Assembly: GCF_037042905.1 (NCBI RefSeq)
Contig: NC_087250.1
Coordinates: 10,790,001 to 10,854,000, forward strand
Source of the DNA: Lytechinus pictus
Taxonomy: Eukaryota
DNA length: 64,000 nucleotides
Direction of reading: 5' to 3'
Under the pieces are notes generated by a model that was not told the DNA's origin, searched no databases, and saw nothing but the letters and a program-made list of their open reading frames with translations. Position numbers and translations under genes: made by a program. This document shows positions 20,069 to 49,856 of the stretch, piece after piece (positions within the stretch are counted from its first letter, which is position 1; each line of letters begins with the position of its first letter).

Positions 20069-20683
20069 CGATCCGATTGACCGTCAGATAGACATATTTT
20101 CGACACTATACCAATTATAATTTCATGTGTCGGGTGAAGGTGGGTTTTGAACAATGACAAGCCGCCATGCCTCAGCTGGATCAAAGGTATTGCTTTGATA
20201 CAGTACACGTATGGGAGAAAGTATACAAATGTGTGAAGTTATACATGTACAACAGCTTTGGCAACTCTTTTATTTAAATATTGTGTGAAAGAAATGGATA
20301 AAGAGAACAATAATAGGCGTAGCTTAAATCAAGGTTCCCCAGAGCTATCTATATCCTTTGGAAAAATTGGTGATGCCGAAAAAATGTCTCTGCCGGGAAT
20401 ATAACCCGGGCCCCCAGCTTTGAACGCCGGTGCCTTAACCCCTAGATCACAGAGACGGGTTAGTGGCTAGGGCGACCCCGATCCGATTGACCGTCAGATA
20501 GACATATTTTCGACACTATACCAATTATAATTTTCTGTATCGGGTGAAGGTGGGTTTTGAACAATGAAAAGCCGCCATGCCTCAGCTGGATCAAAGCTAT
20601 TGCTTTGATACAGTACACGTATGGGAGAAAGTATACAAATGTTTGAAGTTATACATGTACAACAGTTTTGGCAAGTCTTTTAT
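20069..20683 (-). repeat. tRNA-containing ~410-bp satellite, array 1 (1.5 units)
   Basis: cgatccgattgaccgtcagata recurs at 20069 and 20479; same unit as 48150-49413. Confidence 0.9.
20385..20456 (-). pseudogene. tRNA-like cloverleaf in a satellite unit (anticodon position TCA; B box mutated to TTATATT)
   Basis: GTCTCTG/CAGAGAC acceptor stem, CCGGC-GTTCAAA-GCTGG anticodon arm, CCGGG/CCCGG T stem, followed by T6. Confidence 0.75.
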
Positions 20684-20743
20684 TGTTATTTTGTTATGGC
20701 CCTAACATCATCGGACTTAAAATTAATAGCCTGACCGGTCTCA

Positions 20744-21054
20744 GCGGTGTGTACTTTTGCACTTTTTCCAACCATGCCCCTCGTAATCTTCTTGGGTCGT
20801 GTGAGTGAGAAAACGAGTGAGACACTGAGTGCATTCGAACATGATACCTTTCTTGTGAACCTCTTTTACATGCTTATGGATAGTTCTAAGGGTAATGTAA
20901 TGAAGTCTTTCTTGCAACATGGACAGCTATAAACATCCTTTATTCCCTTAATAAGAATAAGATTGTGGACCGGAGTCCGAAAATCTTGGAAGTCAATGAG
21001 GTCCTCAGCATCCGATTCCTCTGACGGGGTATTGGATGCAAGTGTTCTTTCCAC
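20744..21054 (-). pseudogene. Frameshifted C2H2 + CCHC-like zinc-finger coding fragment
   Basis: Removing a 5-bp duplication (ATTAC ATTAC) restores YSCPCCKKDFITLRTIHKHVKEVH-KKGIMFECTQCLTRFLTH...GHGWKKC. Confidence 0.6.
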
Positions 21055-21153
21055 CGAAAATCGGTTGTTATGGCCGTAACATCAGCGGACCTAAAATTAA
21101 TAGCCTGACCGCTGGGGATGTACATATACATATATATTATTTTACATGCTTAT

Positions 21154-21204
<51 letters not shown>

Positions 21205-21456
21205 TATATATATATACATATATTATATATACATAATATTTTGTCAAAAATCATTTTTCAGAGTATTTTACTCCTGCCACACAATTTTATGTATTTTATA
21301 GCCTATGTGGGGGGAATTTTAATTAACAAGAAACCAAAACAAATATTGTATTTATGAAAAAACAAGGTTATGCCTCTTCTATACTGGACTGAAAATGGGA
21401 GTCGTACGATTCATTTAAGAGACATAGGGCTTCATGAAGATATCCATGAAAATTAC

Positions 21457-22329: not shown

Positions 22330-23254
22330 TTTTTCTTTAAATAATTTTATTCATCAAAATATCAACATATATACAATATTTACATACACTCAGTACATGT
22401 AATACACATACCATGCATTCAGTAAAATACTACACCCAAACGCTTATACATAATATAAAACTTTAACTAAGAACATCAACAAAAGTAAACAGTCAAGTGT
22501 AAAACTACCACGGTAACAAGTTGGCACCTTTGTATAAAGCCTATTTCGACGAAAAGGCCCTCCCCCACCATTACTCTAAGCCATGTGATGTACTCACTCC
22601 CTTTCAAACTACCCGCTTATGAATTAAGGCTTGCACACTTGCCAATCTCTAAAATTTATTACTTTCCCTTTAAACCCAAAGCCCCGACCAGGACTGCCAA
22701 GGATAATGGGCCATTCAGCCAATTATGTGACATTCTTGCAATTTCTGAGATGCCATAAAAACATATTGTGAGGTCATGATAACTCACACAAAGTATATTC
22801 TAACTTTACCCCCTTCTATTGAACATAATCTTGACCCTTTTACCCACAGCTTTTCAAACTGTCTCCTAGTTATTCTGTTAAAATCTATCTCTAATCTTAC
22901 TCTTATCTCATTTTTAATTCTCAAAATTAACCCGTCATCTGTTATTCTTTCCTTCGAAAACAAAAACCCGCATCGCTTAGCCCAAATAGCATTTTTTACA
23001 ACGGTAAAAACAAACCAGGTTCGAGGCCAAGTGACCACATTCAAATTTAAATTAGGGAATCCATAAACAAACAATGATTTAACTAATGCGTGATCAAAAC
23101 CCAAATGACGATTTGCAAAATCGTCGACCCAGTCAAGAATTTTACTCAAAGACTTACATTCCCAGAACACATGAAATATATTTTCTAGTTTCCTAGATAC
23201 GCAACTGCTCTTTGACGAGGGTCCTTGAACAGACTGAAAGTGAAGTAAAAACAC
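22330..23254 (-). mobile_element. 3' end of a Tx1/L1-clade LINE (C-terminal zinc-binding region, 3' UTR, A-rich tail)
   Basis: ORF 22784..23254 with ENIFHVFWEC and K.AIW..R motifs; AATAAA and an A-rich end near 22330-22352 on the minus strand. Confidence 0.8.
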
Positions 23255-24108
23255 ATCTCATATAGCCGGGAGGTTTTTAGCAAAAGTTGGTGAACCGCAG
23301 CAGCAGTTTTGTCGGAGAGGTCTAAAAATTGCAAATACGTCATTTGTCCAGAGTTTTATGAAGAAACCGGTGTTATTATTCCCCCATAAAAAAAAATTTC
23401 GTGGTTGTTCTATTTTCTGAAGATCATTTGAAGATCCCTTTCATTTACTTCTTAAATGTTCTGTACGTCATCGATCAAACATATCTTAATCTCATCAGGG
23501 GCCGCGAAACCGGAATTCGAAAATTGATTTTCGGCCTATCTTTCCTGGTTAATATCCAATTCGTCCAATTGCAAACTCGTCTACTCTCGTTTTGTCTACT
23601 ATCAGTTCGTCCACTATTCACATGGTCTAATTGCCAAATCGTCCACCCATCATTTCGTCTAATGACCAGTTAGTTCAATAGCCATTTAGTCCTTATACCA
23701 TTTGGTCTAATTGGACTCAGTGTGTATTGTGCAAAATGAATGAACATGAAGTGGATAATAACTGGTTTTGAGACGAATCGGTCATAGACGAAATGGTGAT
23801 GAAGTGATGACTGGACCAAATGGTTAATAATAATAATATTGATAATGATCATAGGCATTTATATAGCGCGTCTATCTAGAAATATTATATTCCGAGGCGC
23901 ATAAGAAAACAGAGAATTTGGATGAGTGTCAAAGTGCCAATACCTAATACTGTTAGAAAAGATAATACTTCAGCTTAGATTTAAAAGTCTCCAGTGATGG
24001 TATACGGCAGATTATTGCAGAGAGAAGGTGTTGAGGTAGAGAAAACTCTCGCACCATATGCTACACGTGTCATGGGAGTCTTAAGAAGTTGCTGGTGTGA
24101 TGGTCCTA

Positions 24109-47981: not shown

Positions 47982-48092
47982 CTCATTTGCTCGTGCATAA
48001 CGGTTGTCAAACAATCGAATTGGCCACATGACTTGCTTGCTATAAGGTCTCGATTCGATGAGTTCCTTCAGGACTTTTTCTTTGGAGGCAAC
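47982..48092 (-). CDS. ROCO (Roc-COR-death domain) gene, first exon found in the window: C-terminal end of Roc domain (VASKEKVLKELIESRPYSKQVMWPIRLFDNRYARANE)
   Basis: Acceptor ttcacttctacacag|GTT and donor GAG|gtaagt; 111 nt, phase 0-0. The 'RPY..qV....lFDN' pattern resembles the end of invertebrate Roc domains. Joins in frame to the exon ending at 38076. Confidence 0.75.
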
Positions 48093-48149
48093 CTGTGTAG
48101 AAGTGAAAGTTTAATTTGACATTGCTAAAGAATATATGTACATGTATAT

Positions 48150-49413
48150 ATATTGTGAAACAAATGGCTGAAGAGAACAATGGTAGGCGTAGCTTAAATC
48201 AAGGTTCTCAGAGCTATCTGCCCTTTGGAAAATTTGGTGATGCCAAAAATATCTCTGCCAAGAATCGAAACCGGGTGCCCAGCTTGGAACACCGGTGCCT
48301 TAACCACAAGACCACATAGACGGGTAAGTGGCAAGGGCGACCCCAAACAGATTGACCGTCAGATAAACAGATTTTCGACCCTATACCAATGATAATTTTC
48401 TTTGTCGGGTGTAGGTGGGTTTTAAACAATAACAAGCTGCCATGCCTCAGCTGGATCAAAGCTATTGCTTAGATATATATTACACGTATGGGGAAAATTA
48501 TACAAATGTGAAATTTTTTCATGTATAATAGCTTTTGTAACTCTTTTATTTAAATATTTTGTGAAAGAAATGAATGAAGAGCTTAAATAAAGGTTCCCCA
48601 GAGCATTCTCCCCTTTGATAAAATTGGTGACCCCAAAAAGTATCTGCCGGGAATCGAACCCGGGCCCCCAGCTTGGAACACCGGTGCCTTAACCACTAGA
48701 CAACAGAGACGGGTAAGGGCGACCCCGATCCGATTGACCGTCAGATAAACAGATTTTCGACACTTTACAAAATATACTTTCTTTTGTCTGGTGTAGGTGG
48801 GTTCTAAGCAATGACAAGCCGCCATGTCTCGGCTGGATCAAAGCTATTGCTTAGATACAATACACGAACAGGAGAAATTGCACAAATGTGATAAATTATA
48901 CATGTACACCAGCTTTGGCAACTATTTTATTTAAATATTTTGTGAAAGAAATGGATAAAGAGAACAATGGCAGGCGTACATGTAGCTTAAATAAAGGTTC
49001 CCCAGGGCTTTCTGCCCCTTGGAAAAATTGGTGATGCCGAAAAAATGTCTCTGCAGGGAAACGAACCCCCCCCCCCCCCAAGCTTAGAACACCGGTGGCT
49101 TAAGCACTAGACCACAGAGACGGGTTAGTGGCAAGGGCGACACCGATCCGATTGACCGTCAGATAAAAAGATTTTCGACACTATACATATACCAATTATA
49201 ATTTCCTTTGTTGGGTGTAGTTGGGATTTGAACAATGACAAGCTGCCATGCCTCAACTGGATCAAGGCTATCGCTAAGGTAGTGTACACGTATGGATGAA
49301 ATGATTCATGTAGAACAGCTTTGGCAACTCTTTTAAATAATTTAATTTTTTTAATCATTTAAACATTTTGTGATAGAAATGAATGAAGAGAACAATCGTA
49401 GGCTAAGCTTAAA
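48150..49413 (-). repeat. tRNA-containing satellite, array 2 (about 3.3 units; tRNA-like copies at 48250-48321, 48639-48710, 49046-49121)
   Basis: gattgaccgtcagata recurs at ~48349, ~48732 and ~49150; each unit has the cloverleaf with anticodon position TCC, TCC or TCT. Confidence 0.9.
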
Positions 49414-49856
49414 TGATTCAGTATACATATATTCTTTTTTTTGTCACATCATGGGCACTGACGAAGAGTGTGACTTTACCTTTCATTTTTTAGAGCTATG
49501 CTCCTTTTAAAATCTATGATTTTATTTCTACGGCATTTACTATACCATTTATGATTATTTTATATATATATATATATATATATCCCCACAACGCGCGCGC
49601 TGACGTGTTCGTGAAAACGTCGCGTACCGTGTAAACCATTTTTTTCGTTTTCACGAACCCGGCCAGTAGTTTGGAATGAACTTCCTTCTAAAATTTACAT
49701 CTGAGATTAAAAATATTTATATTGGCATGAAAAAGGTACGTTTTATACCAAAAATTACAGTTTGAGTGAATGAAAGTTTTCAAACGCGTTCTTCTCGAAA
49801 CTTACCTTTTTTCTTTGCGCGCTGTTGGCCGATTTCGTGAAATCGGTGACGATATA

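Follow-up and report, generated by a model that had tools for sequence, protein, structure and literature searches.

The window analysed here, 64,000 nucleotides of the genome of the sea urchin Lytechinus pictus, contains a repeat of about 400 bp in which every unit carries, on the minus strand, a segment resembling a tRNA gene, raising the question of what such a repeat is and how it came to be there. Two loci of this kind are present, one with three units and the other with 1.5 (Table 1), and they probably represent two old insertions of a non-autonomous 406-bp tandem retroelement, most likely copied into (TA)n microsatellites by Penelope-like elements (PLEs). A sequence-only reading of the same DNA had described four tRNA-like segments, each followed by five or six T residues, within a repeat unit of about 400 bp. 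Reading the sequence confirmed the former, and a direct-repeat search the latter, as six repeat families extend across 48141-49414 with a copy spacing of 380-428 bp in each, for a family monomer of 406 bp.

Table 1. Features of the two loci in the window (m, position in the family monomer).
Feature	Position	Strand	Remarks
Old insertion of the 406-bp family	48142..49415	-	about 3 units + 50 bp, from near m124 to m~175
tRNA-like unit 1	49046..49121	-	anticodon position TCT; ARAGORN Pyl-cta (poly-G copy); under Rfam gathering score
tRNA-like unit 2	48639..48710	-	anticodon TCC; ARAGORN Gly-tcc; Rfam tRNA 47.8 bits
tRNA-like unit 3	48250..48321	-	anticodon TCC; decayed (sequence and alignment)
Second locus, about 1.5 units	20069..20694	-	m~168 through m406, then m1 to m~377
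tRNA-like unit of second locus	20385..20456	-	TCA; ARAGORN SeC-tca; Rfam 44.4 bits
Oligo-T run (T6) directly after unit 1	49040..49045	-	read in sequence
Oligo-T runs after the other units	48635-48639 (T5), 48245-48249 (T5), 20379-20384 (T6)	-	read in sequence
Leader upstream of unit 2 (~m350-406)	48711..48767	-	degenerate antisense copy of the tRNA-like sequence
TA-rich remnant of target microsatellite, 3' junction	48131..48150	.	after motif ...TTTCACAATA
TA-rich remnant, 5' junction	49421..49432	.	read in sequence

With a single unit as BLAST query against the window, the units proved 74-100% alike; the array, with units only 74-87% alike and containing indels, was not reported by Tandem Repeats Finder. 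Aligned to the family monomer, the three-unit array terminates at the 3' end referred to below as type A. Unit 2 is its best-preserved copy, while a poly-G expansion in the T arm disrupts the T stem of unit 1, and unit 3 has mutations in the acceptor, D and T stems alike. Recognition of the four copies by tRNA detectors, which had been proposed as a check, was partial: ARAGORN called three of them and two passed the Rfam tRNA gathering score of 29 bits, unit 3 being called by neither. The 3' junction is of the type shared with 385 type-A junctions genome-wide, and a longer (TA)n lies at ~49561-49583, beyond the 5' remnant. Alignment to the monomer also finds the antisense leader in the window units. 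The array is an old, decayed insertion. In sequence, the second locus is nearer to the young consensus; its ends are atypical, and that at m377 was also found at one other locus (L043). A zinc-finger-like ORF upstream of 20694 was considered as an autonomous partner and rejected, the DNA there being single-copy, with one other partial match.

Genome-wide, the monomer is 406 bp long with a GC content of 44%, and combines a tRNA-derived, Pol III-type gene of 72 nt and its T6 run with an upstream antisense leader and about 250 bp of AT-rich spacer. At least 2,112 tRNA-like units lie within three mismatches of the 72-nt consensus, versus none for a reversed-pattern control at the same threshold, so that the tRNA-like family is not due to chance. 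The minus-strand consensus proposed from the window copies is nearly identical to the genome-wide one, and the suggested spread as short tandem arrays is borne out; about 1,000 short insertions are dispersed in the genome. Insertion sizes range from 28-bp fragments up to an array of 44 monomers at exact 406-bp spacing (C2:8866126-8883655), with a type-A junction at its end (C2:8866017), and to the long arrays of C28:788-910 kb, where 14 sampled 3.4-kb stretches, several of them overlapping, all consist of tandem monomers throughout. The tRNA cassette is, however, not the self-contained spreading unit that had been envisaged, as it represents only 72 of the 406 bp and what moves has its ends at other positions.

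These ends were determined for 82 arms in 55 dispersed loci. At the 3' side, 38 arms end at m~175 (type A), 37 at m~225 (type B), and seven elsewhere, a concentration on two sites that departs strongly from a uniform spread (binomial p ~1e-69, all 82 arms) and that is also seen in arms not chosen by their junction, 55 of 62 terminating at one site or the other. The two sites are offset by about 50 bp. The 5' ends, in contrast, occupy all 14 bins of the monomer, with arm lengths of 28 to 1,045 bp. (TA)n is found on both flanks of the dispersed copies (on the 5' side in at least 15/18 of one locus set and in 17/19 of another), and junctions into TA repeats number 385 for type A and 612 for type B genome-wide, with none in the controls. 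An adjacent inverted arm is present in 22 of the 55 loci, its 3' end and that of its partner facing outward in all 22; the end types are A+B in 17 of these, A+A in one and B+B in none, and a count of outward pairs from coordinates only likewise gave 17 A/B versus one A/A (p = 1.4e-4).

Fixed 3' ends, 5' truncation, (TA)n flanks and outward inverted arms are published hallmarks of PLE insertions. PLE copies are described as heavily truncated at the 5' end, arranged as partial tandems, accompanied by an inverted neighbour that is itself 5'-truncated, and provided with a tail of 30-40 bp at one end, and a (TA)n preference is stated for Naiads (Craig et al., 2021, PMC8557442). The family shows each of the corresponding features, i.e., fixed 3' ends, 5' truncation, partial tandems, an inverted copy with a tail and a microsatellite target. 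It differs from PLEs in that it has no ORF, a unit of only 406 bp, no detectable sequence in common with the PLE 3' ends sampled in the genome, and a tail of about 50 bp. Together, the (TA)n target and this Penelope-type architecture explain the dispersal of the family.

Potential helpers are present in the same genome. GIY-YIG matches at E <= 0.01 were obtained for 59 of 468 candidates, and all four ORFs scanned contain RVT_1 followed by a C-terminal GIY-YIG domain. One PLE family comprises 880 candidates, of which 150 were scored; all of these share at least 95% identity with the query, and their frames are open up to 981 aa, many being of 909 aa. The 3' ends of the six PLEs inspected all run into (TA)n, and intact PLEs with such ends are abundant alongside the family. 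The monomer has no similarity to the 3' regions of 18 PLE loci, except for nested fragments of the repeat itself, and no tRNA-like sequences were found within these 18 loci. Rfam reported no hammerhead in a PLE 3' region; putative hammerhead cores (CUGAUGA...GAAA) were spotted by eye in five of six PLE 3' regions. The PLEs found here are of C-terminal-endonuclease types, while the (TA)n preference has been published for Naiads (PMC8557442); this counts against PLEs as helpers, as do the offset of about 50 bp, longer than the published tail, and the lack of a shared 3' sequence.

Whether an RNA of the family exists was addressed with three standard paired-end RNA-seq runs, in which transcription is not separable from DNA carry-over and a 72-nt RNA is invisible. 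Each run contained only 628-1,294 family reads, equal in both mate directions, whose depth tracks genomic copy number and which lack discrete ends. Reads crossing the monomer junction ("goes back 406") numbered 27, 39 and 24 in these low-depth, strand-symmetric data. The reads may therefore be DNA carry-over or passive read-through.

An alternative for which these reads leave room is spread at the DNA level, with satellite fragments or extrachromosomal circles being captured by microhomology at broken, fragile (TA)n tracts, without reverse transcription. TA microhomology at both junctions fits such a process, and the long homogeneous arrays could shed circles. Random capture nonetheless predicts that both ends behave alike, whereas the 3' ends of 55 of 62 arms fall at two sites and the 5' ends are monomer-wide; the outward orientation of all 22 inverted pairs, 17 of them A+B, and a target common to the autonomous PLEs of the same genome further argue against it, making this route an unlikely one.

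What, then, is the tRNA-like module? The family consensus scores 60.9 bits as a tRNA, with all four stems paired, conserved D and T loop positions intact, A and B boxes present, and oligo-T runs at m73-78 (T6, immediately after the module) and m92-96 (T5), much as the sequence-only reading had described. The family shares its T arm, base for base, with real Glu-CTC/TTC, Gly-GCC/CCC, Gln and Pro genes of the same genome (anticodons assigned by us); in the first 100 of 233 matches, none of the real genes with exactly this T arm had the anticodon arm of the family. A decoding tRNA is expected to have a pyrimidine at position 32 and an anticodon for a sense codon. The family has G32, whose non-canonical nature had been remarked upon and which turns out to characterise the family, being present in 22 of 23 distinct variants, and the anticodon TCA, found in 163 of 171 full-length copies; overlapping stretches of the C28 arrays supplied many of these copies. 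The module is very probably not a decoding tRNA, and the "drifting anticodon" of the window copies reflects decay plus an older TCC subfamily.

Upstream of the module, the leader aligns with the tRNA-like sequence in antisense orientation, with a local alignment score of 22 on the family monomer compared with 13.6 +/- 2.1 for shuffles, three of 500 of which reached 22. In read-through RNA, the leader is predicted to sequester the tRNA-like sequence in a long hairpin, with a computed energy of -75.5 kcal/mol versus -54.0 kcal/mol for the cloverleaf-constrained fold. The monomer RNA as a whole is predicted to be rod-like (MFE of -134.2 kcal/mol, versus -101.4 +/- 4.7 kcal/mol for shuffles, z = -7.0). 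No Rfam ribozyme family matched either strand of three consensus monomers at E <= 10, and no hammerhead core (CUGANGA...GAAA) was seen by eye in the monomer.

The module had been proposed to be a structure-conserved, non-decoding tRNA mimic serving the host, whether by supplying a small ncRNA or tRFs, by acting as a TFIIIC insulator, or as a primer or decoy, in which case the repeat would be its vehicle. Its near-perfect consensus as a Pol III tRNA-type gene with a terminator, and the persistence of both G32 and the cassette in the older TCC and younger TCA subfamilies, are in keeping with this proposal, as is the diversity of the tRNA part, which is half that of the rest of the unit (34/1967 versus 318/9778, Fisher p = 1.5e-4), a figure that comes from non-independent copies at loci picked by overall similarity. 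However, the copies decay: covariation of the stems had been suggested as a test of structural conservation, and among the 23 distinct variants there were no compensatory changes, 17 pair-breaking ones and eight one-sided ones, and thus no sign of purifying selection on the fold of the copies. Substitutions fell on paired and unpaired sites of the tRNA-like part alike (25 on 42 and 16 on 30, respectively), and in the window, where stems have been lost, the tRNA part decays about as fast as the rest of the unit. Copy number and placement moreover follow insertion mechanics rather than genes, and the cloverleaf is predicted not to form in read-through RNA. A host function as the reason for the family's existence therefore appears improbable.

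As the sequence-only reading held, the family is neither a classical SINE nor an ordinary tRNA gene array. A Pol III-transcribed, LINE-copied SINE that later formed tandem arrays would account for the tRNA-related head with A and B boxes, the antisense leader could be a snap-back relic of an ancestral 5' end at m1, and SINE-derived satellites have been described in squamates (PMC10702118). T6 right after the tRNA and T5 13 nt further on would nevertheless stop Pol III before the body, only two of 81 arms have their 5' end within 10 nt of the tRNA start (m1), and exact matching of the tRNA picked out 20 loci, all with upstream monomer sequence, so that this explanation is largely refuted for the present family and has very little left to commend it. 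Hardly any credit can likewise be given to a working tRNA gene family, for instance one of opal suppressors or of tRNAs of an unusual selenocysteine or tryptophan type, despite the intact consensus stems and D/T loop positions and the UCA anticodon, given G32, the absence of the long variable arm of tRNA-Sec, the neutral decay of copies and the location of the 2,112 copies inside a mobile repeat. Opal suppression or selenocysteine use in the PLE ORFs was also rejected, as the in-frame TGA at the second Cys of a CxxC motif in one PLE copy (L068) is a one-off (1/150 scored copies) and the other in-frame stops lie at differing places.

Satellite-like repeats of Helitrons and Helentrons have defined 5' and 3' termini and a 3' hairpin, and insert at AT or TT without truncation; the variable 5' ends and the two 3' ends inside the monomer do not fit carriage by such an element. 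Repeats carried in this way are described for oysters (PMC7492417).

Closer parallels are offered by the animal non-LTR retrozymes, which are described as dispersed tandem repeats, low in GC, with units of 150-450 bp and sizes ranging from dimers to large multimers, whose RNA is predicted to be highly self-paired and for which PLEs have been proposed as helpers (Cervera and de la Pena, 2020, PMC7229834; Li et al., 2026, preprint 10.64898/2026.07.22.740005). The 406-bp, 44% GC tandems share with them dispersal, a self-paired predicted RNA, co-existing autonomous PLEs and, as a proposal in both cases, a multimeric or rolling-circle template. Retrozymes differ in carrying a type I hammerhead in each monomer, where the family has no recognisable Rfam ribozyme but a tRNA-like Pol III cassette, its terminator and an antisense copy of the cassette; they are also expressed as linear and circular monomer RNAs, a point on which the family offers the low-depth, strand-symmetric junction-crossing reads given above. 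The family is thus most likely a non-autonomous, retrozyme-like passenger that lacks a hammerhead and has a tRNA-like module instead.

Anatomy, copy numbers, end statistics, target, resident PLEs and the missing hammerhead are direct observations, whereas an RNA intermediate, PLEs as the helper and a role for the tRNA-like module are inferred. In the mechanism that we favour, the reverse transcriptase and GIY-YIG endonuclease of PLEs would copy the family by target-primed reverse transcription into (TA)n microsatellites. The template would be unprocessed multimeric, possibly circular, repeat RNA rather than the 72-nt Pol III product, with m~175 and m~225, both TA-rich, as the positions at which priming occurs. 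Random stops of synthesis would yield 5'-truncated partial tandems, and the second DNA end would often prime too, thereby generating a head-to-head inverted arm that terminates at the other site. Long arrays would be the same insertions made long or expanded later. The role that we prefer for the tRNA-like module is that of a cis element which master copies retain, and which might keep arrays open as a Pol III/TFIIIC site or contribute to the structure of the rod-like template.

A bolder version of this scheme, tentative and on balance rather unlikely, is that the family represents a novel class of mobile, retrozyme-like RNAs in which a tRNA gene takes the place of the hammerhead. Two RNAs would then arise from one and the same DNA: more than 2,000 genes would give rise to a Pol III cloverleaf RNA with the anticodon UCA, and a long template, multimeric or circular, would have its tRNA locked in a hairpin by the antisense leader. 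The hairpin would hide the tRNA from RNase P and RNase Z, so that the template survives for PLE copying into TA repeats, and the module would act as a functional switch or as a promoter or chromatin element of the parasite. If so, the host could in turn be affected by the small RNA, through a pool of tRFs or through weak opal suppression.

Combinations of tRNA-like modules and mobile elements have precedents. With tRNA-derived SINEs and SINE-derived satellites (PMC10702118), the family shares an A/B-box tRNA module and tandem arrays originating from a mobile element; unlike in SINEs, the terminator directly follows the tRNA part, copies start elsewhere than at the tRNA, the upstream flank of the tRNA is mobilised along with it, and insertion is (TA)n-specific. 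Cassandra, Helenus and Ajax (Kojima, 2024, PMC10886601) likewise contain a tRNA- or 5S-like sequence in a non-autonomous, non-SINE retroelement, but they are LTR elements of other organisms, whereas the family has no LTRs and a PLE-type insertion. No report of a tRNA-like satellite was found for bivalves or sea urchins, in the literature searched, although the family may already be catalogued in Repbase or Dfam; the search for Lytechinus returned genome papers only, and none of the literature matches listed concerned a tRNA-like module in PLE passengers.

The family links satellite DNA, tRNA-like Pol III genes and Penelope-like retrotransposition, which are normally handled separately, and indicates that retrozyme-like tandem elements can do without a ribozyme. 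Its approximately 1,000 junctions, two priming sites and heterotypic inverted arms constitute clean natural data on the poorly understood insertion cycle of PLEs. For L. pictus, a model sea urchin, it accounts for thousands of "suppressor/SeC" tRNA pseudogene calls and for many of the repeats flanking TA microsatellites in the genome and, should the tRNA module be active, the family would form a large mobile reservoir of Pol III/TFIIIC sites.

The 406-bp family is real and abundant in the genome. A search of the same assembly with one unit from the window returned 1,298 first-look candidates, with 406 bp as the commonest monomer length, and the 72-nt tRNA-like consensus has 2,112 genome matches at three mismatches or fewer (reversed-pattern control, 0); among the matches listed, many are exact and they are spread over different chromosome-scale contigs. 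Scored as a tRNA, this consensus reaches 60.9 bits with zero mispaired stem positions; its anticodon is TCA and its position 32 is G. Monomers also form long arrays: 44 of them follow each other at a spacing of exactly 406 bp on contig C2, and 14 sampled 3.4-kb stretches (several overlapping) of C28:788-910 kb consist wholly of tandem monomers. Runs X2-X4 and X6 (organism B) and X17 (organism C), which carry two other species labels, contained about half of the 31-letter words sampled from the consensus dimer; related species may have a nearly identical family.

Repeat copies in the window and parts of the monomer consensus (m, monomer position counted from the tRNA start)
Feature	Position	Strand	Basis
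Three-unit array, units ~400 bp	window 48142-49415	minus	sequence reading, direct repeats, pairwise comparison
Second locus, 1.5 units	window 20069-20694	minus	sequence reading, pairwise comparison
tRNA-like sequence	m1-72		monomer consensus
T6	m73-78		monomer consensus

Every unit in the window carries a tRNA-like segment of 72-76 nt with a T5-T6 run directly 3'; the sequence-only reading was right about the anatomy of the units, and the anticodon positions of the four copies (TCT, TCC, TCC, and TCA) are as it had given them. ARAGORN calls a tRNA in three of the four segments and two of the four exceed the gathering score of the Rfam tRNA model (47.8 and 44.4 bits); the copy at 48250-48321 is called by neither, its decay being too advanced. 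Tandem Repeats Finder did not report the array, because its units are just 74-87% alike, with indels. C31>T, together with a base other than A at position 36, is common to the three array units when they are compared with the young consensus, and points to an older TCC subfamily; beyond this they differ from the consensus by private changes, at rates per site of about 10% in the tRNA part and 12-14% in most of the remaining monomer. Judged by their sequence, the window copies are old members of the family. The array is probably intronic and on the same strand as the gene, since an exon-like open stretch (window 48020-48095, minus) ends in a GT donor (...AATGAG/gtaagt) and, some 50 bp downstream of where the array ends on its 3' side, there is an AG acceptor. 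Near the second locus, a frame-shifted C2H2-zinc-finger-like ORF lies immediately upstream (window 20741-21081, minus), in DNA that occurs essentially once in the genome, and a (TA)44 microsatellite is found at window 21154-21239. A 157-aa open frame at window 22784-23257 (minus), with a ...HVFWEC...-type motif, resembles the C-terminal end of a LINE ORF2 and is unrelated to the repeat.

The units had also been described as a structure-conserved, non-decoding tRNA mimic with a drifting anticodon. That selection keeps the fold in each copy is unsupported: among 23 distinct variants, representing 171 full-length ungapped tRNA-like copies, there are 0 compensatory double changes, the stem changes are 17 pair-breaking and eight one-sided pair-keeping ones, and substitutions number 25 on 42 paired sites vs 16 on 30 unpaired sites. 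The apparent drift of the anticodon comes down to decay and the history of the subfamilies. Across the 15 dispersed loci retrieved with the whole unit, the diversity measured around the majority base was 1.7% (34/1967) in the tRNA part vs 3.25% (318/9778) elsewhere (Fisher p = 1.5e-4); as these copies are non-independent, this is no more than a hint that source copies keep the tRNA module.

As a driver of SINE-type mobilisation, the module was ruled out, because T-runs follow it (the T6 and, 13 nt beyond, a T5 run in the consensus) and copies start elsewhere than at the tRNA. In inserted copies it is always contiguous with both flanks, so neither RNase P nor RNase Z had cleaved the template at the tRNA. 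The leader (m350-406) repeats the tRNA, minus its anticodon arm, in degenerate antisense form (local alignment score 22 vs 13.6 +/- 2.1 for shuffles, reached by 3 of 500 shuffles). Folding in a read-through context is predicted to give a long hairpin at -75.5 kcal/mol, vs -54.0 kcal/mol with the cloverleaf enforced, and predicted pair probabilities are near 0 for the acceptor, D, and T stems, the anticodon stem alone surviving; a leaderless Pol III transcript starting at m1 could adopt the cloverleaf, at a modelled energy of about -30 kcal/mol. Tentatively, we take the module to be a captured tRNA that master copies retain as a cis element, and not a decoding tRNA. Its T arm is the same, base for base, as in real Glu, Gly-GCC/CCC, Gln, and Pro genes in the genome, and no one parent stands out. 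A large genuine cluster of tRNA-Gly(GCC)-type genes lies at G000:C3:30240611-30284407, in which, among the matches listed, adjacent genes are separated by about 600-3,400 bp, and such a tRNA gene array is a possible source type for a tRNA-bearing tandem element.

The mode of insertion was addressed by mapping 55 dispersed loci (15 found by whole unit, 20 by exact tRNA match, and 20 by 3' junction alone) onto the monomer, giving 82 arms. Of their 3' ends, 38 are of type A, at m~175 after the motif ...CTTTACAATAT, 37 are of type B, at m~225 after ...CTTTACACATTT, and seven lie at other positions; when the 20 junction-chosen arms are left aside, 55 of 62 end at the two sites. The 5' ends occupy all 14 bins of 29 nt, with only two of 81 arms beginning within 10 nt of the tRNA start, and arm lengths range from 28 to 1,045 bp. 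Nearly all cases have a (TA)n microsatellite on both sides, and junctions into TA repeats number 385 (type A) and 612 (type B) genome-wide (controls, 0). The 44-monomer array on C2 terminates in the same junction as the type-A dispersed copies. An inverted arm abuts the direct arm at 22 of the 55 loci, and the 3' ends point outward in all 22 pairs, among which 17 are A+B, one is A+A, and none is B+B; junction coordinates alone, on contigs C1-C7, give 17 A/B vs one A/A outward pairs. This polarity and symmetry speak against capture of random DNA and for primed, directional copying from two template sites. In two inverted pairs (L074 717-925 and L075 196-926), the arms meet near the same monomer position (m95/m106 and m56/m58, respectively), as though the copying enzyme had turned back onto the strand it had just made. 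By analogy, the antisense leader, which adjoins the tRNA in each monomer, could stem from an old snap-back.

Primed copying could be provided by Penelope-like elements (PLEs), and we consider it likely that the family spread by PLE-type retrotransposition into TA microsatellites. PLE insertions, in the portion of Craig et al. (2021; PMC8557442) that describes them, are strongly 5'-truncated and often partial tandems, often have an inverted 5'-truncated copy directly adjacent, bear a 30-40 bp tail at one end, and are biased to microsatellites, (TA)n for Naiads. As far as that portion goes, 5' truncation, partial tandems, adjacent inverted copy, tail, and microsatellite bias are all seen in the 406-bp family, where the A/B offset of ~50 bp would be the counterpart of the tail. 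PLEs are also numerous in this genome: their endonuclease domain, GIY-YIG, has 59 matches at E <= 0.01 (from 468 candidates), and in all four scanned ORFs of 896-1,026 aa the reverse transcriptase domain RVT_1 is followed by a C-terminal GIY-YIG. One PLE family has 880 candidates, and the 150 copies scored show 95% identity or more to the query, with open frames of up to 981 aa, many of them 909 aa. All six PLE 3' ends inspected run into (TA)n. The monomer has no detectable sequence in common with 18 PLE loci, and the resident PLEs are C-terminal-endonuclease types and not Naiads, whose (TA)n bias it is in that portion of the source; a PLE helper is therefore something that we only infer. Repeat fragments of 28-87 bp, ending at type A/B sites, lie within TA microsatellites flanking autonomous PLE copies (L065 6236-6437, L064 3638-3665), and the same microsatellites were thus struck repeatedly by different elements. 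One copy of a very abundant PLE family (L068 4932-4934, G000:C15) has a TGA at the second cysteine of the GIY-YIG CxxC motif, after which the frame continues for 88 codons; recoding was rejected in favour of a point mutation, because the remaining 149 scored copies of its family have no in-frame stop at that cysteine.

Among runs recorded as RNA and checked for the repeat, none contained it. Three raw RNA-seq runs labelled Lytechinus pictus (~12.9 million records read per run), aligned to one monomer, gave 1,294, 860, and 628 reads of at least 93% identity, with equal mate directions, no preferred starts or ends on the monomer, and a depth that climbs toward m~170, parallel to genomic copy number. 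Many of these reads extend into unique flanks, and 27, 39, and 24 cross the monomer junction. Read-through transcription from dispersed copies and from arrays could explain these reads, and DNA carry-over could do so equally well; on a 72-nt RNA they have no bearing.

Animal non-LTR retrozymes, in the relevant portions of the literature (PMC7229834; preprint 10.64898/2026.07.22.740005), are low-GC repeats of 150-450 bp that occur in tandem, as dimers and up to large multimers; they express self-paired linear and circular RNAs, have co-resident PLEs as proposed helpers, and have as their defining feature a type I hammerhead in every unit. By that description, the 406-bp monomer is like them in size, GC (44%), array behaviour, and predicted self-pairing (z = -7.0), but lacks the defining hammerhead, neither strand matching a ribozyme at E <= 10. 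By analogy, the family appears to work like retrozymes despite failing their defining feature, and we file it as a retrozyme-like, PLE-type passenger, with PLEs as the helper that we infer and a tRNA gene in place of the hammerhead.
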